NCBI GenBank assembly: GCA_964441235.1
Contig: CAYTUQ010000004.1
Coordinates: 6,269 to 70,268, forward strand
Direction of reading: 5' to 3'
Length of the DNA stretch: 64,000 nt
Source: an uncultured bacterium
GTDB taxonomy: Bacteria > Fidelibacterota > UBA2242
Part shown: positions 4,693-53,187 of the stretch, one piece after another
Numbering within the stretch: the stretch's first letter is position 1
Layout: each line of letters opens with the position of its first letter
Made by a program: the position numbers and the translations under genes
Notes under the pieces: generated by a model
Told to the model about the DNA's origin: nothing
Databases searched by the model: none
What the model saw: only the letters and a program-made list of their open reading frames with translations

Positions 4693-4827
4693 CCCAACTT
4701 TACTGCAAAACAGGAAAGACGGTAAAGATCAATGTTACGAACTTCGTATCTTATTGTTTTTAGTGAAGCGGGTTTTTGAAAACGTAATTATTAAATAGTT
4801 TGTAAGAAAAAAGCCTTACTGAAGATT

Positions 4828-6615
4828 TTATTGGAAAGAAGAAACAGGGAGTGCTATAATAAATTTTGAACCTTTACCGACTTCGCTTTCTACATCTACT
4901 CTTCCATTATGTGCAAGAACAATGTGCTTTACAATAGCGAGTCCTAATCCAGTTCCGCCGAGTTTTCGGCTGCGTGCTTTATCAACACGATAAAAACGCT
5001 CAAAAAGGTGGGGTAGGTGTTTTTCTTTAATTCCACAGCCATGATCAGTGACGCTAATGATTACTTCTTCTTCAGACTGAGATGCGTCGACTTGAATCGA
5101 GCTTCCTGGTTCACTATATTTAATAGCATTATCGATTATATTTACAACAGCCTGCTCGAAGAGAGGAGCATTGATATTTGCAACTATGCCTTGCTTGCAT
5201 GTCAAGTCAATTTTTAAATCATTTTCTGAAGCTTTGGAAGTACAGTCTTGGATTGCAACTTCAAGTATATCCTTTATCTTGCCTTTTTCAAATACAATTT
5301 CTGATTTTTCGTCTTCTTGCTCAATTCTGGAAAGACTGAGAAGATCCTCGATAATTGCATTTAAACGGTCAACCTGTTTCGAAATAATATCAAGAAAACG
5401 TTTTGCGTTCTTCTTCTCATTGATTGTTACATCTTGAAGAGTTTCAACGAAACCTTTAATTGAAGTAATCGGTGTTCTCAACTCATGTGACACATTGGCT
5501 ACAAAATTGCGTCTTATATTCTCAAGACGTTTGATTTTAGTGACATTGTTTAAAACGATAAGTGCCCCAATTTCAATACCTTCAAAACCCTTAAGCAAAG
5601 TTCCATGTGCCTGCAGAAATTGATCTCCTTTTGCATTAGGTATAACGATTTCCTCTTCTACTACCTCGCGGTTTTCTAATACTCTTTTAACAAATTTTTG
5701 AAGATCAACAATTCTCATGACTTCCTGAAGGCTACGTCCTTGAATATTGGTTGGATTGATTCCGAATAGTTCTCCGGCTGCCCGGTTTATTTTTATTATC
5801 TTCTCATTTAAATCAACCGCAATTACACTTTCGATCATACTCGATAAAAGAGCATCCTGTTCATTTCTTTGCTTTACAAGAGTCTGAATTTTTTCTCTAA
5901 GTTGAGCAGCCATCTGATTCATTGAAGCTGCAAGACTCCCCAACTCTGAGGAATTAGGAATAGGCAGATTGTAGTCCAAATCTCCGCGGGCAAAGTGTTC
6001 AGTTCCGCACTTCATTTCTTCTATCGGACGGCTTATCTGTCGAGAAATAATAAAACTAACCAGTGCAAATATAAAGGATATAATTACTCCTCCGAGAAAA
6101 ATGTTTAGATATACACCCCTTAGAACCTGTTTTATTTTTGTTATTGATATAGCAGTGCGTATCATACCTTTTAATTTACCATCCTGCTCAACAGGTATAG
6201 CAAGATACATCATATTTTTTTTAAGTGTATTACTGAAACGAATTGATGTACCAACATTACTGTTTGCTATTGCATTTTTAATTTCCGGACGGTTGTAATG
6301 ATTATCCATAATAGATGGATCTTCATGAGAATCGCCAATTACTTTTCCTGATGGTAAAATTATTGTAACCCGTGTTGAGGAACTCCTACCAATTTCTTTG
6401 CATAAAGAATCCAGGTATAATGCGTGTATCGGTGATATGTTTTTTGAGACCTGGTTTTTTATGATTTGTGCTCTTGCTTCAAGGTCTGTAGCGACTTGTT
6501 TGTAGTAAAATTTCTGAAGAGAAAGAGATGAGTACCAGGCAATGGCAGTTAGAGAAACTAATGTTATCAATAGATAAGTTGGATAAATTTGCCATATAAG
6601 ACGTTTTTTTCTCAT
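4828..6615 (-). CDS. phoR: Phosphate regulon sensor histidine kinase (PhoR-like).
   Basis: Two N-terminal TM segments, a HAMP/PAS region, HisKA H-box NVSHELRTP and HATPase G-boxes (GGTGLGLAIVK). Adjacent to phoB and pst. Confidence 0.8.
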   Translation of the reverse strand: MRKKRLIWQIYPTYLLITLVSLTAIAWYSSLSLQKFYYKQVATDLEARAQIIKNQVSKNISPIHALYLDSLCKEIGRSSSTRVTIILPSGKVIGDSHEDPSIMDNHYNRPEIKNAIANSNVGTSIRFSNTLKKNMMYLAIPVEQDGKLKGMIRTAISITKIKQVLRGVYLNIFLGGVIISFIFALVSFIISRQISRPIEEMKCGTEHFARGDLDYNLPIPNSSELGSLAASMNQMAAQLREKIQTLVKQRNEQDALLSSMIESVIAVDLNEKIIKINRAAGELFGINPTNIQGRSLQEVMRIVDLQKFVKRVLENREVVEEEIVIPNAKGDQFLQAHGTLLKGFEGIEIGALIVLNNVTKIKRLENIRRNFVANVSHELRTPITSIKGFVETLQDVTINEKKNAKRFLDIISKQVDRLNAIIEDLLSLSRIEQEDEKSEIVFEKGKIKDILEVAIQDCTSKASENDLKIDLTCKQGIVANINAPLFEQAVVNIIDNAIKYSEPGSSIQVDASQSEEEVIISVTDHGCGIKEKHLPHLFERFYRVDKARSRKLGGTGLGLAIVKHIVLAHNGRVDVESEVGKGSKFIIALPVSSFQ

Positions 6616-8402: not shown

Positions 8403-8528
8403 ACTACTGCGTCTTCGGGACAGGGTGAAAGTCTCAACCGGCGGTAAAAGTCCGCGAGTTCCGATTAACATCGGGACTGAGTCTGTGAAATTCAGGCACC
8501 GACGGTAAGAGTCCGGATGGGAGAAGAT
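8403..8528 (+). promoter_or_regulatory. FMN riboswitch (RFN element).
   Basis: Conserved cores cttcgggaCAGGGTGAAAgtctcaACCGGCGGTaaaAGTCCGCGAg ... CCGACGGTaagAGTCCGGATGGGAGAAG. It sits immediately 5' of ribD. Confidence 0.85.
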
Positions 8529-8535
8529 CAAAACA

Positions 8536-9648: not shown

Positions 9649-10292
9649 TGTTTACCGGTCTTATTGAAGAAATGGGAAAAATCAAAGGGATTACTCCCAA
9701 CACTAAGGGTAAAGAATTTCGTATAGAGTCAAAAAAAGTTATTAATCATCTGAATATTGGTGACAGTGTCGCTATTGATGGTGCATGCCTGACTGTAACA
9801 GCCCAAACTAAAGAATATTTTTCTGTCCAAGCGGTAGAGGAGACTCTTGTAAAAACAACTTTGAAAAACGTTAAAATTGGTAGTTCAGTTAATATTGAAC
9901 GTGCTGTGCTTGCTATCGGTAGATTTGGGGGGCATTTTGTCCAGGGGCATGTTGATGGCATTGCGGAAATTGTATCATTTCAGAGAACTGGTGAAGCAGC
10001 AAAATTGAAGATTAAAATCCCTGATGCAATTGTGAAGTATATAGTTCTGAAAGGTTCGATAGCTTTAAACGGGATCAGTCTAACGGTTGCTGAGGTAAAT
10101 GGTTCAATCGTTACTATAGCATTGATTCCGCTTACTCTGAAGAATACAAATCTGGGTCAGAAAAGAGTGGGTAACAGTTTGAATATTGAGGTTGACCTGT
10201 TGGCAAAATATGTTGAGAATTTTCTTAAGAGTAAGGAACAGAAAACGATTTCAGTTGAAAAAATTAAAACATGGGGATACGGGGGAAATTGA
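9648..10292 (+). CDS. ribE: Riboflavin synthase alpha subunit.
   Basis: N-terminal MFTGLIEE...G consensus and duplicated lumazine-binding halves (GDSVAIDGACLTV and GISLTVAEV). Confidence 0.85.
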   Translation: MFTGLIEEMGKIKGITPNTKGKEFRIESKKVINHLNIGDSVAIDGACLTVTAQTKEYFSVQAVEETLVKTTLKNVKIGSSVNIERAVLAIGRFGGHFVQGHVDGIAEIVSFQRTGEAAKLKIKIPDAIVKYIVLKGSIALNGISLTVAEVNGSIVTIALIPLTLKNTNLGQKRVGNSLNIEVDLLAKYVENFLKSKEQKTISVEKIKTWGYGGN

Positions 10293-22104: not shown

Positions 22105-23232
22105 CTATGACCAGTAAAAAGGTTGTTCCTTTAATTGAGGTTGCTTTGAGATGTTTAAGATAATGCCAGTGCATGCCAGATTATATATCATGGACGAACC
22201 TCCGTAGCTGAAGAAGGGAAGGGGAAGACCCGTAACTGGAAAAATTCCACATACTACTCCGATATTAATAATAACATATAGGAACATGCTTGTAGATACT
22301 CCGATTCCCAGCAGGTTTCCAAAAATATCCGGTGCTTTAAGAGAAATTTGAATTCCTCTGATGAAGATTAAAAGAAAAAGAATTAAAAGTATCGTAATAC
22401 CTATGAAACCTAATTCTTCTCCAGCAACTGAAAAAACAAAGTCAGTATGTGGGTCAGGTAAGAAAAGATTTTTTTCTACACTATCAGCAAGACCTCGTCC
22501 CCAGAAACCACCGTTGCCTAATGATATTAGTGATTGATGGATTTGATAACTGGCTCCCTGAAGGTCTTTTTCCGGACTAAATAGAGTTAAAATTCTGTTT
22601 AGTTTATATGGAGATCTAATAATCGCAATAACGGATGTTACAGTAATTAAACCAAGTAGGTAAGAAAGATGAAGTAGTTTTGTTCCACCAACTATTAATA
22701 GAGTTATTCCTAATATCGCAATTACAGCACCTGTACTGAAATCCGGTTCAATAATAACGAGTATTACAGTAATAAACATTACGACTGCAGGAGGGAGAAA
22801 TCCATTTTTAAAATCATGTAATTCTTTTTGGTGTCTGTCAAGAAATGATGAGAGATAGATAATGGTAGCAAATTTTGCAAATTCTGAAGGCTGAGCATTA
22901 AACGGTCCTACAGGCATCCAACGGGCAGTTGAGTGAGCATTAGAAAATTTATGGTAAATCAGAGAGATTGCTAAAAGGATTATTCCCAATAATGCTATCC
23001 AGAAAGCAATTGATTTAAGCCGCTGGTAGTTTACTCTCAGGAAAAATGTTCCAATAATTATTCCTGTGATAATTCTTATTAAATGCCCCCGCATGTAAAA
23101 ACCTGGATCATTAAATCTGGCTGCCGCGATAGCGGAGCTCGCACTGTACTGAATTACGAATCCGATACCGAGCAAGAGTATCGTCAAAATTAAGTATGGT
23201 TGATCTATTGTCTTGTTATACCTGCTGGTCAT
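22105..23232 (-). CDS. ftsW: Lipid II flippase / peptidoglycan polymerase FtsW (SEDS family).
   Basis: About 10 TM segments. SEDS motifs DFVFSVAGEELGF and PFFSYGGSS. Confidence 0.85.
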   Translation of the reverse strand: MTSRYNKTIDQPYLILTILLLGIGFVIQYSASSAIAAARFNDPGFYMRGHLIRIITGIIIGTFFLRVNYQRLKSIAFWIALLGIILLAISLIYHKFSNAHSTARWMPVGPFNAQPSEFAKFATIIYLSSFLDRHQKELHDFKNGFLPPAVVMFITVILVIIEPDFSTGAVIAILGITLLIVGGTKLLHLSYLLGLITVTSVIAIIRSPYKLNRILTLFSPEKDLQGASYQIHQSLISLGNGGFWGRGLADSVEKNLFLPDPHTDFVFSVAGEELGFIGITILLILFLLIFIRGIQISLKAPDIFGNLLGIGVSTSMFLYVIINIGVVCGIFPVTGLPLPFFSYGGSSMIYNLACTGIILNISKQPQLKEQPFYWS

Positions 23233-24635
23233 TTGATTTTTCCTTTAACAAGGGATAGAACTGTTTCTTTGAACACCTTTCCTCGATGCTCAAAGTTTTC
23301 AAACATATCAAAACTGGCACAGGCTGGTGAAAGGAGGGCAATTTCACCCGGATTAGAAAGCTTGTTCGCCAATATTGTAGCCTCTTCAAGTGAACGAGCA
23401 TAATGTAAAGGGATAATTCCATTAAGCACTTTGCGAATCTTTGGAGCTGATTCACCTATTAGTATTGCTTCCTTAGTGTGACTTTTAATAGCTGGGATCA
23501 ACAGGGAGAAATCTAAGTCTTTATCTTTTCCTCCCAGAATGATAATTACCGGTTTTTGGAAACTTTTTAAAGCGTATATAACGGAATCAACATTAGTAGC
23601 TTTGGAGTCATTGTAATAATCCACATCATTAATAGAAGTTATATATTCGAGACGGTGTTCAATTCCTTTAAAACGTTTTAAAACATTTCTAAGGTGATCA
23701 ATGTTTATTTTGAATTTTATTGCAACAGTAAGTGCAGCCAGTATATTATAAAGATTATGTTCACCAAGTGGCAAAATATCAGAGCGATCTATCACCAGAT
23801 GGGTCTCCGATAATTTTTGTCCATTATGAAGATAAATTGAATTGGCATCAGTATTGACAATATTTTGAGAATTAGAGTAAATACTGAAGGGGATATTTTG
23901 GCAGTTATCCGGTATATTCTGTGAAATCAGTGTATCATCACTGTTATAGATAAATAGATCATCTTTTTTCTGGTTTTTTGCTATTTTCATCTTTGCTGCA
24001 AAATATGATGGAATATCCTCGTATCTATCCATGTGGTCTCTTGAAATGTTGAGTATAATAGATGCTTTGGGACGGAAATGAACAATACGCTCCAATTGAA
24101 AGCTGCTGACTTCTAAAATAAATATTTTATTTTTAATGGATAATTCTTCTGTTTCAATGATTAACTTGCTAAATGGTATTCCTATGTTGCCGCCGCAGTA
24201 TGGCTCATATTGAGTGTTTTTAAACATTTCATATATGAGAGTGGTAGTAGTGGTTTTCCCATTGGAACCGGTTACGGCAATTATTTCGGAAGGCTTAGAG
24301 AACCAATACGCCATTTCCAGTTCGCTGACTATCGGGATTCCTGAAGATTCGAGCTTTGTTACGACAGGTGCAGTGTTTGGAATGCCTGGACTTATAATAA
24401 CAAGGTCTGCATTATTAACTTTAGAAGTATGACCTCCTAATTCTATTTCTATTCCGCTTGCTTCTAATTTTGATAATGTTTCTTTTGATAAAGCAATGTT
24501 TGCGTTATCAGATAACAAAACTTTTGCACCTTTATTTGCCAGAAGGAGGGAGGCACTAATTCCACTGCAGCCCGCACCGAGAACGGTTGCAGGTCTATTT
24601 TCAAGATTTTTTGGAATGCTATTCTGATTGATCAT
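23229..24635 (-). CDS. murD: UDP-N-acetylmuramoylalanine--D-glutamate ligase.
   Basis: Rossmann-like N-terminus (GAGCSGISA) and Mur ligase P-loop GSNGKTTTT. Confidence 0.9.
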   Translation of the reverse strand: MINQNSIPKNLENRPATVLGAGCSGISASLLLANKGAKVLLSDNANIALSKETLSKLEASGIEIELGGHTSKVNNADLVIISPGIPNTAPVVTKLESSGIPIVSELEMAYWFSKPSEIIAVTGSNGKTTTTTLIYEMFKNTQYEPYCGGNIGIPFSKLIIETEELSIKNKIFILEVSSFQLERIVHFRPKASIILNISRDHMDRYEDIPSYFAAKMKIAKNQKKDDLFIYNSDDTLISQNIPDNCQNIPFSIYSNSQNIVNTDANSIYLHNGQKLSETHLVIDRSDILPLGEHNLYNILAALTVAIKFKINIDHLRNVLKRFKGIEHRLEYITSINDVDYYNDSKATNVDSVIYALKSFQKPVIIILGGKDKDLDFSLLIPAIKSHTKEAILIGESAPKIRKVLNGIIPLHYARSLEEATILANKLSNPGEIALLSPACASFDMFENFEHRGKVFKETVLSLVKGKIK

Positions 24636-25735
24636 AATATTTTGAAACTGCTTAAGCCCAATAGTGTCAATAAAATTCCAATTATCCAGAAACGAACTAC
24701 AATTTTGCTTTCATTCCAGCCCTTTATTTCAAAGTGGTGATGTAGAGGTGCCATTAGAAAAACTCTTTTTCCTGTGCCGGTTCGCTTTTTTGTCCACTTA
24801 AAATATCCAATTTGTATTAAGACAGACGCAGCTTCAGCAACAAATACTCCTCCTAAAAGTATGAATAGAAGTTCTTTTTTTAATAAAATAGCCAGAGCAC
24901 CGAGCGCACCACCCATTGCTAAAGAACCTGTATCACCCATAAATACCTGAGCAGGCTTACTATTATACCACAAGAAACCAAGCATTGCTCCTGCAAAAGA
25001 TAGACAGTAGACAGTAAGTTCACCAGAACCTGAAAGGTATATGGTATTCAGGTAATCACTAAAATCAATACGACCCGTCACATATCCAATTACGGCAAAA
25101 GCCAATGCTATAATTCCCATAAGTCCAGCCGCCAATCCATCCAGACCATCAGTAAGATTTACAGCATTTGTTGTACCTGTTATGACTAAAATGACAAACG
25201 GGATATAAAACCATCCGAGATTTATTTCTGTATTTTTTAAAAATGGAATAGAAGTTGAGGAGTGAAGACCGGCAAATTCAGGTGAAAAGAAAATATAAGA
25301 TCCTATAATTAAACCCAGTGTTATTTGACCAACCAGCTTATATCTTGCAATGAGTCCTTTTTTGTATTTTTTTACAACTTTTAAATAATCATCAAGAAAG
25401 CCGATTCCACCCATCCAAATAGTTGTGATCAACATTATCTTAATATAAATGTTGGTTAGATCAGCCCATAGAAGTACTGGTATTAGAGCAGAAAAAAGGA
25501 TGATAATACCTCCCATAGTGGGAGTTCCTTTTTTAGATAGATGTGTTTTAGGGCCATTTTCACGGATTATTTCGCCGATCTGATATTTTTTCAGAAGTCT
25601 TATGATCCATGAACCAACAATAAAACTAATAATAAGAGCAGTAATGGCTGCCATTGCAGACCTAAAAGTGATATATTGGAAAAGATTAAAACCGGAAAAG
25701 GTGTTTTTTAAGGGATATATAATATGGTAAAACAA
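24632..25735 (-). CDS. mraY: Phospho-N-acetylmuramoyl-pentapeptide transferase MraY.
   Basis: Polytopic membrane protein with NAVNLTDGLDGLA and GDTGSLAMGG motifs. Confidence 0.9.
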   Translation of the reverse strand: MFYHIIYPLKNTFSGFNLFQYITFRSAMAAITALIISFIVGSWIIRLLKKYQIGEIIRENGPKTHLSKKGTPTMGGIIILFSALIPVLLWADLTNIYIKIMLITTIWMGGIGFLDDYLKVVKKYKKGLIARYKLVGQITLGLIIGSYIFFSPEFAGLHSSTSIPFLKNTEINLGWFYIPFVILVITGTTNAVNLTDGLDGLAAGLMGIIALAFAVIGYVTGRIDFSDYLNTIYLSGSGELTVYCLSFAGAMLGFLWYNSKPAQVFMGDTGSLAMGGALGALAILLKKELLFILLGGVFVAEAASVLIQIGYFKWTKKRTGTGKRVFLMAPLHHHFEIKGWNESKIVVRFWIIGILLTLLGLSSFKIL

Positions 25736-25874
25736 GACGCAACTCCTTTACGATTGAAAATTGTAAATATTAAAGTGAAAAGTACAAATTTTGTGATTGA
25801 TTTTCCGTGCGATTTACAGTAGTCAATTTCTAGTTTCACTTGTGGTATTTCTATATTGTAATTAGAGATACTAA

Positions 25875-26015
25875 GGGGGTGTGATAGAATAAAGTTTTCA
25901 TTCTCGGAGACCCATCTGGCAAATGAACTTAGAATAATACAAAAATCCATTTAATTTCTTCTTCCCAGAGGGATGTCTTCGACAAACCCCCTAAAGGTTA
26001 TATCATCACACCCCC
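25875..26015. mobile_element. MITE-like element, copy 1, with terminal inverted repeats GGGGGTGTGATAGAATAA / TTATATCATCACACCCCC.
   Basis: About 40 bp at the 5' end and about 21 bp at the 3' end are identical to the second copy at 52698-52866. The 18-bp TIRs are imperfect. It has no coding capacity. It sits in the mraY-murF intergenic gap. Confidence 0.65.
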
Positions 26016-26054
26016 TAAACAATTTTTTATCAATTTCTCTGGGATAATAATACA

Positions 26055-27416
26055 TCAGTTCTTTATTTCTTCAATTACTTCTTCCATGTGAGTTCTGTGA
26101 GAACCTTTAACTAAAAGAGTATCAGTGCTATTTATTTCACTCTTTATTGTTTTAATAAGTTCAATTTTGTCAGTGAAATGATATGCGTTTTTCATTCCTC
26201 GATGTTTTGCTTCTTTTATAGCTGCTATTGACAGTGGCCCAAAAGCATAAAAGATGTCAATTTCTAATTTGGCAACAGATTTGCCGACTTTAGCATGTGC
26301 TTCTTCTGTAGATTTCCCTAACTCGAGCATATCTCCAAAAACAAAAATACGCCTGCCTTCAACTTTTATTATTGATAATGTATGTAATGCAGCTATAGTT
26401 GAGTCAGGATTAGCGTTATATGTATCGTCTATAATTTTGCATGGAATTTGATTAGAAATAACAAAACGCTGATCAACTGCGGTAAAGTTTTCCAAAGTTT
26501 CTATAATTTCTAATTCTGAAATTCCGTAATATAATCCAACAGATATAGCAGCTAAAGCGTTAAGGGCAGGAACTTTTCCGGGGATTTTAAGCTGGATTCG
26601 GAACTTGTTATTAATTTCTAATAGAGGGCAACCTTCATTTGTGTAGGATATTATTTTACCGGCAATTTCTGCTTTAGATAAATTGAAGCCATATTTTAAT
26701 ATATTATCAGTGGTTGTCATCTTTTTAATAAACGGATCATCCATATTTACAAATGAAATGCCATCTTTAGGTAGTGATAGGAAAAGTTCTTCTTTTGCTT
26801 TAGCCACACCCTTCTGAGAACAAAAGAATTCAATGTGTCCGTATCCGATGTTGGTTATAAGACCTGCAGATGGTTTTGCTAATTCACACAGATATTTAAT
26901 CTCACCAAAGTTATTAGAGCCCATCTCAATGAGGCTAAAATTGTGATATTTATTAAGTTTTAAAAGTGTCAGTGGTAAACCAAGCTGATTGTTCAAATTC
27001 CCAGTTGTTGAATGAAGATTGAATTTTGTTTTGAGAATTGCTTCCGCCATTGCACGGGTTGTGGTTTTTCCATTTGTTCCGGTAATTGCGAGAATCGGGA
27101 GGATAAACTGTTTGCGCCATTCAGCAGCCATCATCTGAAGTGTTTTCTCTGGCGACCTGACTATCCAGAGCGGAGTAGATTCTATATCGTTTTCTTTAAC
27201 CCATTTTTCAGAAACTAAACAAAGGGCTGCGCCCTTATTTAGTGCATCTTTAACAAAGAGATGGCCGTCAACATTATCACCTTTTAAAGCGACAAAAAGG
27301 GTACCTTTTTCTACTTTTCTGCTGTCTATGCAAACATCTGTTATATTTGCATCAAAATTGACAAGTTTTCCATACTTAAGATTTCTTATGAAATTGGCAT
27401 TAATAAAATTTGCCAT
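26055..27416 (-). CDS. murF: UDP-MurNAc-tripeptide--D-Ala-D-Ala ligase MurF.
   Basis: P-loop GTNGKTTT, Mur ligase middle and C-terminal domains, and the usual position after murE. Confidence 0.85.
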   Translation of the reverse strand: MANFINANFIRNLKYGKLVNFDANITDVCIDSRKVEKGTLFVALKGDNVDGHLFVKDALNKGAALCLVSEKWVKENDIESTPLWIVRSPEKTLQMMAAEWRKQFILPILAITGTNGKTTTRAMAEAILKTKFNLHSTTGNLNNQLGLPLTLLKLNKYHNFSLIEMGSNNFGEIKYLCELAKPSAGLITNIGYGHIEFFCSQKGVAKAKEELFLSLPKDGISFVNMDDPFIKKMTTTDNILKYGFNLSKAEIAGKIISYTNEGCPLLEINNKFRIQLKIPGKVPALNALAAISVGLYYGISELEIIETLENFTAVDQRFVISNQIPCKIIDDTYNANPDSTIAALHTLSIIKVEGRRIFVFGDMLELGKSTEEAHAKVGKSVAKLEIDIFYAFGPLSIAAIKEAKHRGMKNAYHFTDKIELIKTIKSEINSTDTLLVKGSHRTHMEEVIEEIKN

Positions 27417-51966: not shown

Positions 51967-52062
51967 CACCCATGATTTTTCTCCACAACGAAACATGCTC
52001 CAGCAGGAGTCCCGTTGGGAAAAGATGATCTGTAAGATCTCTGAAATAATGGAGTAGTATAT

Positions 52063-52197
52063 TGTCATTCGCTTCGCTGTCATTTATTGTCATTTGGCTT
52101 CGTCGTCATTTGACCACTGAATGACCACTGAATGACTATTGAATGACTATTGAATGACTATTGAATGACCACTGAATGACTATTGAATGACTATTGA
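52063..52197. repeat. Array of AATGAC motifs: four inverted tgtcatt copies, then eight 11-bp tandem units TGAC(C/T)A(C/T)TGAA.
   Basis: The sequence reads tgtcattcgcttcgctgtcatttattgtcatttggcttcgtcgtcatt, followed by (tgaccactgaa)x2 (tgactattgaa)x3 tgaccactgaa (tgactattgaa)x2. Confidence 0.8.
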
Positions 52198-52498
52198 CAT
52201 TGAGATATATAATTAAAATTCGTGCAAATTCGTGTACTTCTTGGTTACTTTCATATAAACAATTAAGTAATTTTATAAAGTTATTAATAGATGTAGCTGC
52301 TATTGATAATAACGAGTTATAAAATCAACTATTTAATAGAATAATTATCTCAAAGAGATGTCAACGACAAATAGTTCGACTAATTTTTTCGCAACTATCA
52401 GTCCATTGGTCAACAGGTTTGTAGAAAGTTCAACATATATAGTTTCAATTATCTAAATTTTCTTGTTTAACCAGAGAAGACAAACTAAATTTTGGGAA

Positions 52499-53187
52499 AT
52501 GGAGAAAGAATTTAACGTTAATAATCCTCTCAACAATAGAGGAAATCTTGTTCTGAAAGCAGTGGTTTTAGATTATATTCGCAGCGCATTTCCTGTTAGT
52601 TCAAAACAAGTCTGTAAGTTCAATAGTTAAGAAAGCATCTAAGGTTTTTAATTTTTCACAGCAAACTATTGCCAAATTGTCAGGTACATCAAATTTAGGG
52701 GGTGTGATAGAATAAAGTTTTCATTCTCGGAGACCCGTTCAGCCGAAGGTCTGCCGAACGAATCGTATGATCTGGCGATTGTAATTTATCGTTTTGTTAT
52801 TTATGAATTTACAATTTAAATATGTTTCGGAGACACGTCTGGCGAAGGTTATATCATCACACCCCCTTAATGTTGAAACCTGATTTTCATGATTTGGACA
52901 AATTGAGTCAAATTATAATGCAGATTGAAGATGGTACAATAATTGCCAATATTTACGAGAATTGAAAGCACGAGTCTGGGATTGTGATATCTATTGGTTC
53001 AGAAAATGAAGACTATCTGTTACTTGATTTTAGTGTGGTTACAAAGGACTATGAAATTAGTGAATCAAAAGGTCTTGTATCTGTTATTGGGCCGAAAAGA
53101 ATGAATTATCCAAAGGCTATAACTCTTGTGGATTGTATTGCTGATGTTGTTAATTTAGTATTTGATAAAAAGATGGGAGGAAAGTAA
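52499..53187 (+). pseudogene. hrcA: Degraded heat-shock repressor gene hrcA, broken by frameshifts and a MITE insertion.
   Basis: N-terminal 43 codons MEKEF...NLVLKAVVLDYIRSAFPVSSKQV are HrcA-like. The MITE lies at 52698-52866. C-terminal fragments IEDGTIIANIYEN* and KHESGIVISIGSENEDYLLLDFSVV...GLVSVIGPKRMNYPKAITLVD lie in different frames. The total span is too short for an intact hrcA. Confidence 0.5.
52698..52866. mobile_element. MITE-like element, copy 2.
   Basis: It has the same termini as copy 1 (gggggtgtgatagaataaagttttcattctcggagaccc ... ggttatatcatcacaccccc). Its internal region is different and longer. Confidence 0.65.

Follow-up and report, generated by a model that had tools for sequence, protein, structure and literature searches.

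Tourist-like miniature inverted-repeat transposable elements (MITEs), mPing among them, are short and non-coding, carry G-rich inverted ends, are flanked by TAA or TTA duplications and are mobilized in trans. The Correia elements of Neisseria (CREE/NEMIS) measure about 100-155 bp, have 26-bp inverted ends and generate a TA duplication. They are often found between co-transcribed genes, where they form hairpins in the mRNA, and both promoter and RNase III effects have been documented for them. Smaller still are the small dispersed repeats (SDRs), near-identical units of about 20 nt that lie at exact presence/absence differences, nested in MITE-like elements and in each other, with no target duplication. 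These cyanobacterial repeats were reportedly described by Elhai et al. in 2008.

Canonical PIF/Harbinger elements produce 3-bp duplications, for which the sequence TWA is a hallmark, and are kin to the prokaryotic IS5 family (PMC12730594; PMC2213677). In Porphyromonas gingivalis, which belongs to the same FCB superphylum as the organism considered here, MITEs derived from the IS5 family (BrickBuilt, MITE239, MITE464 and MITE700) are present at some 10-20 copies per genome; their ends match those of IS5-family insertion sequences (ISs), and they are often nested in other mobile elements (PMC4596501). NEMIS elements are named in PMC3116915. Passages of that article and of PMC5861425 cite the 2008 work on SDRs, which have been reported only in Nostocaceae (PMC5861425).

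The elements analyzed here lie in a window of 64,000 nt, by which the whole stretch of DNA under analysis is meant, from an uncultured bacterium. The window is 100% identical to the JGI contig Ga0307427_1000232 over 13 kb, and the homologues of its MurF and GrpE proteins are annotated as Candidatus Marinimicrobia or Neomarinimicrobiota, which places the organism in the Marinimicrobia lineage. Two stretches of this DNA very probably belong to a family of non-autonomous DNA transposons (MITEs) with a wide distribution in Marinimicrobia/Neomarinimicrobiota.

This family resembles the Tourist-like MITEs and mPing (PIF-Harbinger), as well as the IS5 family, in that it is short and non-coding, has inverted ends with a G-rich start, shows a 3-bp TAA/TTA duplication within a longer palindromic target (here Y-TWA-R), and would be mobilized in trans. 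It differs from them in that its host is bacterial, that neither a parent nor a transposase has been found, and that its end sequence matches no described IS in the literature searched. The ends of the P. gingivalis MITEs are also different (GAGACCTTTGCA, as opposed to GGGGGTGTGAT in the Marinimicrobia family). The parents of the P. gingivalis elements are known, whereas none was found for the Marinimicrobia family, and the duplications of BrickBuilt are variable, whereas those reported here are uniformly TWA. With the Correia elements, the family has in common its size class, its inverted ends and a location between co-transcribed genes, but the Correia elements duplicate TA and their end sequence is unrelated. 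The comparison with SDRs concerns only micro-modules of 18-22 nt found within the elements. Both are tiny, near-identical units at exact indels, prone to nesting and devoid of target duplication, but the Marinimicrobia units come from another phylum, appear unrelated in sequence, and include one that lies in frame in the essential gene murD.

Two copies with common ends

The window has exactly two occurrences of a 39-nt start (GGGGGTGTGATAGAATAAAGTTTTCATTCTCGGAGACCC), at positions 25875 and 52698, both on the plus strand, while none is expected from shuffled sequences. A 20-nt end (GGTTATATCATCACACCCCC) likewise occurs exactly twice, at 25996-26015 and 52847-52866, and shuffled controls gave none. 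The repeat finder stretches the parts common to both copies to 40 nt at the start and 26 nt at the end, and a search of the window for repeats also recovered both pairs of inverted repeats. Pairing of the copy ends is perfect over the first 11 bp (GGGGGTGTGAT / ATCACACCCCC) and comprises 15 of the 18 positions overall in both copies (Table 1). A reading made from the window sequence alone, hereafter the sequence-only reading, had described two stretches of 141 and 169 nt with the same start, the same end, imperfect 18-bp terminal inverted repeats and unlike interiors, and it proved correct on each of these points. Its statement that neither copy has coding capacity also holds: the sole ORF of at least 60 aa that touches either copy (25708-25950, minus strand, 80 aa) overlaps the start of mraY as well and is probably spurious. 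Both copies are in addition immediately flanked by 3-bp duplications that had gone unnoticed, with cTAA preceding and TAAa following copy 1, and tTTA preceding and TTAa following copy 2.

Table 1. Positions in the window of the two putative MITE copies, their modules and the neighboring features.
Feature	Position	Strand	Remarks
Putative MITE, copy 1	25875-26015	+	141 nt; antisense to dcw genes; shared ends, inverted repeats, empty site in L082/L083
Left terminal inverted repeat, copy 1	25875-25892	+	GGGGGTGTGATAGAATAA
Right terminal inverted repeat, copy 1	25998-26015	+	TTATATCATCACACCCCC
Target-site duplication of copy 1, left	25872-25874		TAA
Target-site duplication of copy 1, right	26016-26018		TAA
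m1 micro-module in copy 1	25904-25921	+	18 nt; TCGGAGACCCATCTGGCA
Nested MITE-like fragment in copy 1	25924-25991	+	Truncated, reverse orientation; full element of ~120 nt (GGGGGTGTGTCGAAGAC...CTCACCCCC) in L003, L013, L182
murF, upstream neighbor of copy 1	26055-27416	-	Pfam
mraY, downstream neighbor of copy 1	24632-25735	-	Pfam
In-frame m1 insertion in murD	23793-23810	-	18 nt; tcggagacccatctggtg; +6 residues; absent from L081, L082, L083
Putative MITE, copy 2	52698-52866	+	169 nt; in decayed hrcA, upstream of grpE-dnaJ, same orientation; empty sites in L202, L204
Left terminal inverted repeat, copy 2	52698-52715	+	
Right terminal inverted repeat, copy 2	52849-52866	+	
Target-site duplication of copy 2, left	52695-52697		TTA (hrcA Leu codon)
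Target-site duplication of copy 2, right	52867-52869		TTA
m1 in copy 2, split by nested short inserts	52727-52777	+	TCGGAGACCCGT, then 32 nt, then TCTGGCG
Second m1 in copy 2	52827-52844	+	TCGGAGACACGTCTGGCG; exact 18-nt insertion relative to basic members, at ATATGTT/AAGGTTATA
hrcA pseudogene remnant, host of copy 2	52499-53187	+	~520-nt internal deletion, frameshift, in-frame stop (TGA)

Insertion into a spacer of the dcw cluster

The genes around copy 1 form a dcw cluster of standard order (mraZ-rsmH-ftsL-ftsI-murE-murF-mraY-murD-ftsW-murG-murC), and the element lies 39 nt downstream of the murF stop codon and 139 nt upstream of the TTG start codon of mraY. It had been proposed that this copy splits mraY from murF in a cluster that is otherwise tightly packed. 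The element is indeed located between the two genes, but it did not create the gap: relatives that are free of it have a conserved spacer of approximately 155-175 nt from the murF stop to the mraY TTG start, and the premise of tight packing thus fails here. At the loci L082 and L083, whose MurF proteins are 81% and 78% identical to that of the window, the site holds a single TTA and no element (...aaaaatggtTTAgtatctc... / ...gataaaaaatggtTTAgtatctc...), where the window reads ...ttgtTTA(141 nt)TTAgtatctc... or, in a longer form, ...gataaaaaattgtTTA(141 nt)TTAgtatctc.... The site is likewise empty in L081 (MurF 88%), with ATA in place of TTA. In L084 (MurF 89%), a 100-nt member of the family with another interior occupies exactly the same TTA as copy 1. 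Either a hot spot has been hit twice independently, or a single old insertion has later had its interior swapped by recombination. Five short-read contigs with an identical MurF all end 23 nt inside copy 1, which is how a repeat behaves in a de Bruijn assembly.

Copy 1 would have inserted at a TTA, as read on the dcw strand, in an already-existing non-coding spacer, and it would add a strong hairpin to the dcw transcript. No terminator-like site was found in copy 1, and transcription is therefore expected to read through it into mraY. The only matches to a promoter-like consensus that overlap the copy are found at 25979-26006, inside it, and at 25863-25890, across its left end; as both are on the plus strand, neither faces mraY. 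The proposal that the repeat could affect co-transcription of murF and mraY is weakened both by the presence of the spacer in relatives and by the lack of a terminator-like site.

The murF-mraY spacer itself (window 25736-26054; L081-L084) is conserved non-coding DNA in this clade, and it is possible that it contains a promoter or a leader of mraY. An ORF of 60-67 aa is found at the murF stop in relatives, with a 21-nt deletion in L081. Disruption of a real small gene by copy 1 was considered and rejected: the counts of variable sites at the three codon positions are 10/14/15, and the ORF of L084 is interrupted by a stop. In view of this internal stop and of the lack of codon-position bias, the ORF is probably not coding.

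Insertion into a decayed hrcA gene

Copy 2 is located between ftsE-ftsX and grpE-dnaJ. Once the copy is taken out together with one TTA, the sequence translated across the junction matches Pfam HrcA at profile positions 114-163 (E = 8e-4), and the segment that follows the junction matches positions 168-215 (E = 9e-13). The corresponding site is free of the element in two relatives, both with one TTA (...catcaaatTTAatgttg...): L202 (GrpE 90%) has an intact hrcA of 351 aa, and L204 (GrpE 84%) has the same deletion of about 520 nt as the window. This rules out copy 2 as the inactivator of hrcA, because L204 has the deletion without the element; the gene was thus already dead when the copy arrived. 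The insertion of copy 2 would have struck a TTA codon of hrcA after the ~520-nt deletion had inactivated this gene, and both insertions in the window are probably near-neutral.

In the window, the hrcA deletion sits at a tgtaa microhomology. In L203, hrcA is almost entirely gone. With an intact gene in L202, a deleted one in the window and L204, and a nearly lost one in L203, the HrcA heat-shock repressor is being lost repeatedly in this clade, in which grpE-dnaJ remain intact. The ftsX-hrcA spacer harbors a tandem array of about nine copies of the 11-nt unit TGACYAYTGAA (window 52100-52208), and some 470 nt around this array (51969-52434) have no counterpart in L202-L204. The same region contains a 22-nt segment (52347-52368; reverse complement GTCGTTGACATCTCTTTGAGAT) homologous to a 22-nt micro-insertion in elements of a second MITE-like family, family B (see below), at L123, L144 and L165 (blastn 25/27 nt, E = 4e-5). 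Elsewhere in the window, at 8407-8532 on the plus strand, there is an FMN riboswitch (RF00050, 100 bits, E = 5e-22).

A family with copies across Neomarinimicrobiota

That the element is present twice is true within the window, but the family is multi-copy beyond it. Further copies, for which the sequence-only reading had suggested a search, are numerous in Neomarinimicrobiota genomes and metagenomes, where the loci that carry them are unrelated. A scan for the end pattern in one genome per species gave 72 loci, and the corresponding scan of metagenomes gave at least 117. In six Neomarinimicrobiota and two unclassified metagenome-assembled genomes (MAGs), the matches form facing pairs 50-545 bp apart or are single exact ends with a slightly mutated partner. 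The single matches in unrelated phyla are at chance level, approximately 140 being expected for the end pattern in 596 Gb. Among the matches listed, about 50 dereplicated further copies of 50-273 nt lie at unrelated flanks, all in DNA of Neomarinimicrobiota type.

Dereplication by flanks yielded 41 independent copies among the matches listed, a special group of 64-nt copies nested in family B being left out. The length of these 41 listed copies ranges from 50 to 273 nt with a mode of 100-108 nt, and their ends follow the consensus GGGGGTGTGATAGAATAAAGTT on the 5' side and, as the reverse complement, GGGGGTGTGATaAtATAACCTT on the 3' side, this 18-19-bp end consensus being conserved at 0.9-1.0 per position. 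Viral contigs scanned for the end pattern and for the micro-module m1 gave only single matches at about chance level, in unrelated DNA of higher GC content, and a BLAST search of plasmids with the basic 108-nt element gave no match. The literature search retrieved no paper that ties MITEs to Marinimicrobia and none with the end sequence in a relevant context. The element is a previously undescribed MITE family of an uncultured marine phylum, and as a kind of object it is routine.

At L155 (approximately 9988-10016), one copy of the family lies directly beside an apparent tRNA 3' end (GGGGGTTCGATTCCTCCTGGGCGTA); the right-hand flank of this locus recurs in L034 with a different left-hand neighbor.

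Target-site duplication and probable type of transposase

Among the matches listed, sites with TWA on both sides carry the same triplet left and right in 31 of 32 cases (p = 3e-8, binomial, given the marginal frequencies), with 19 TTA/TTA and 12 TAA/TAA pairs, one discordant TTA/TAA pair and no TAA/TTA pair. The base at position -4 is a pyrimidine in 40 of the 41 listed sites and that at +4 a purine in 38 of them, which makes the target a palindrome, Y-TWA-R. The flanks indicate that the element integrates at this palindrome with duplication of the TWA triplet, and integration would be performed in trans by a DDE transposase with a 3-nt staggered cut. The transposase is most likely of the IS5 / PIF-Harbinger type, an assignment that derives solely from the size and the sequence of the duplication, as no enzyme was found.

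The search for an autonomous IS with the same terminal inverted repeats, which had also been suggested from the sequence, was negative in the 1.5 Mb of related DNA covered. Inverted repeats at most 3 kb apart in the window revealed no such partner, and neither did TWA-flanked GGGGGT...ACCCCC pairs 600-3500 bp apart in all fetched loci (~1.5 Mb). A scan of the fetched related DNA for ORFs with the YREK motif detected only an unrelated transposase in the chance-match locus L091, and an all-against-all repeat scan of ~1.5 Mb yielded no parent element, but only eukaryote-like GT microsatellite DNA.

If it were a MITE of the IS630/Tc1-mariner type, the element would duplicate TA only, the third flanking base being contributed by the element or by a target preference. 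TA does adjoin the element in every flank and, TWA being itself a palindrome, the flanks alone would allow a TA duplication with one extra terminal base; such a duplication would also be compatible with the discordant TWA site and with the conserved TTA...TAA flanks of those copies, 64-65 nt long, that are nested in family B. This type of element is nevertheless improbable, as the middle base of the triplet agrees on the left and right in all but one of the 32 independent sites among the matches listed, at the significance given above. Under the TA model, elements would need one more A at the 5' end or one more T at the 3' end, but never both, and TAA...TTA occurs 0 times among these matches. 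Moreover, nearly all of the TTA...TAA cases go back to a single ancestral nested copy, which multiplied within the second element.

It is more improbable still that the copies are REP/BIME-like mosaics of palindromic units, spread by a RAYT protein (an HUH tyrosine transposase) or by recombination rather than by cut-and-paste. Their interiors are strongly modular mosaics of short hairpin-forming units that differ by the precise presence or absence of 18-22 nt, with no duplication at those micro-insertions, and the ~1.5 Mb of related DNA gave no DDE parent; all of this would be consistent with such a mosaic. REPs and REPINs, however, lack the long inverted ends, the 3-bp duplication and the clean empty sites that characterize the whole elements, and the element ends are not REP-type palindromes.

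A conserved structured RNA whose closing stem mimics terminal inverted repeats, either as a small RNA or as a regulator in cis of the dcw and heat-shock operons, is effectively refuted: on either strand, the fold of each copy is better than that of shuffled controls (z = -2.9 to -4.1), but good folding comes automatically with inverted ends; far from being carried by relatives at both loci, the sequence is missing from both sites in them; copies are found at unrelated loci with duplicated flanks; and copy 1 is antisense, copy 2 sense, to the local genes. Its rejection was also based on 18 aligned copies of 100-108 nt, in which 0 of the 22 predicted pairs are compensatory (covariation term +0.14), and the substitutions in the end stem of these copies (G>A, C>A) simply break pairs. 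Rfam, searched at the gathering threshold and at E <= 1, gave nothing at either copy except a chance snoRNA match (E = 0.44). The non-autonomous MITE that the sequence-only reading had proposed is thus supported by the target-site duplications, the empty sites, the further copies at unrelated loci and the lack of signs of an RNA.

Modular interiors

In its basic form of 100-108 nt, the element consists of a 5' module, an AT-rich module, an optional GC hairpin (CCGGCAGCTGCCGG or CCCGAAACTTCGGG) and a 3' module. In longer forms, a second element of about 120 nt (GGGGGTGTGTCGAAGAC...CTCACCCCC, with TTA/TGA flanks) is nested within the 3' module. When copies are aligned pairwise, they differ by exact insertions of 18-22 nt, the commonest of which is the 18-mer m1, TCGGAGACCCGTCTGGCG. 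Three different sites of the main family carry this module, as do two sites in another element; with the copy in murD included, it is present with exact 18-nt boundaries at at least six distinct sites.

Copy 1 may be a 273-nt composite of the type found at L167 from which the DNA between two m1 units has been lost; it would retain the 5' module, one m1, part of the nested element and the 3' end. Copy 2 is a basic element with m1 at two sites, at one of which the module is split. The family diversifies through nested insertions of small related elements, through precise micro-insertions of 18-22 nt and through deletion between repeated modules, and the combination of these processes explains why the two copies of the window are alike at their ends and unlike inside.

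Exact insertions of 18-22 nt between alignable copies were observed at L119, L115, L167, L129, L181, L009, L143 and L168, as well as at 52727-52777 and 52827-52844 in the window. The inserted units are m1 (18 nt, three sites), TTCCAGCGGAATCCTATGGA (20 nt), CTTCACCAGAAGTTCTACGAA (21 nt) and TCTCTTATAGACCTCTTTGAGG (22 nt), some of which are mutually nested.

Two other elements accompany the main family. Family B is a second MITE-like family of 176-219 nt with the ends CCCTACAACGTCATTT...ACGTAGTAGGG that was found at L123 (approximately 4706-4906), L058, L145, L165, L100, L018 and other loci, and is absent from the window. Its copies are flanked by TTAA (TTTA/TTTA in L145), with outer flanks that are unrelated between loci, a pattern that suggests a 4-bp TTAA duplication, and they always hold a nested 64-65-nt member of the GGGGG family. 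The third related element, of about 120-160 nt, is the one nested in the longer forms; it was found at L003 (5462-5586), L013, L182 and L148, always within the 3' module of the main family with the same TTA/TGA flanks, and the fragment in copy 1 belongs to it.

The m1 module and its insertion in murD

The gene murD occupies positions 23229-24635 of the window, and its m1 insert lies between ...caaaaaTTA and ATAgatcg.... The encoded MurD protein has 468 aa in the window, as compared with 462 aa in L081, L082 and L083. There is no target duplication at the insert, and about 12 kb of compared DNA showed no other indel of this kind. The inserted module corresponds in reverse complement to the m1 of copy 1, which is found 2.1 kb away in the same operon. 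The two share the rare variant CCCATCTGG, and CpG-type transitions are all that separates them from a common TCGGAGACCCATCTGGCG.

It is conceivable, though rather less than even odds would be given for it, that the 18-22-nt units, of which m1 (TCGGAGACCCRTCTGGNN) is the clearest, are discrete and independently mobile micro-elements like the cyanobacterial SDRs. Their insertions, which have exact boundaries and leave the target unduplicated, are found in MITEs, in one another and on occasion in coding sequence, and the fixed 18-nt boundaries at the sites of m1, together with the lack of duplication, suggest a discrete unit. The m1 module also has the features by which SDR-like repeats can be recognized, being at most 30 nt long, near-identical between copies, present at exact indels in unrelated contexts, devoid of duplication and nested in MITE-like DNA. 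The main alternative for the murD insert is a single templated repair event that copied it from copy 1.

An inverted repeat of 20 nt (23795-23814 and 25900-25919; 19/20 complementary) ties murD to copy 1. The two segments could pair on the dcw transcript over 2.1 kb, and this repeat may be a by-product of the origin of the murD insert.

Implications for Marinimicrobia

Neither insertion is likely to represent a regulatory innovation, as the dcw spacer existed beforehand and hrcA was already dead. The MITE family does explain assembly breaks in Marinimicrobia MAGs, and its insertions are polymorphic markers that lend themselves to strain tracking. Both its ends and its target are now defined (TWA directly followed by GGGGGTGTGAT...), and the missing transposase can be sought by them. 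Of more specialist interest are the precise micro-insertions of 18-22 nt, one of which is tolerated in frame in murD. If these units are mobile, they would point to a poorly understood mechanism of DNA mobility, and they would represent a second, phylogenetically independent case of mobile DNA of less than 30 nt.
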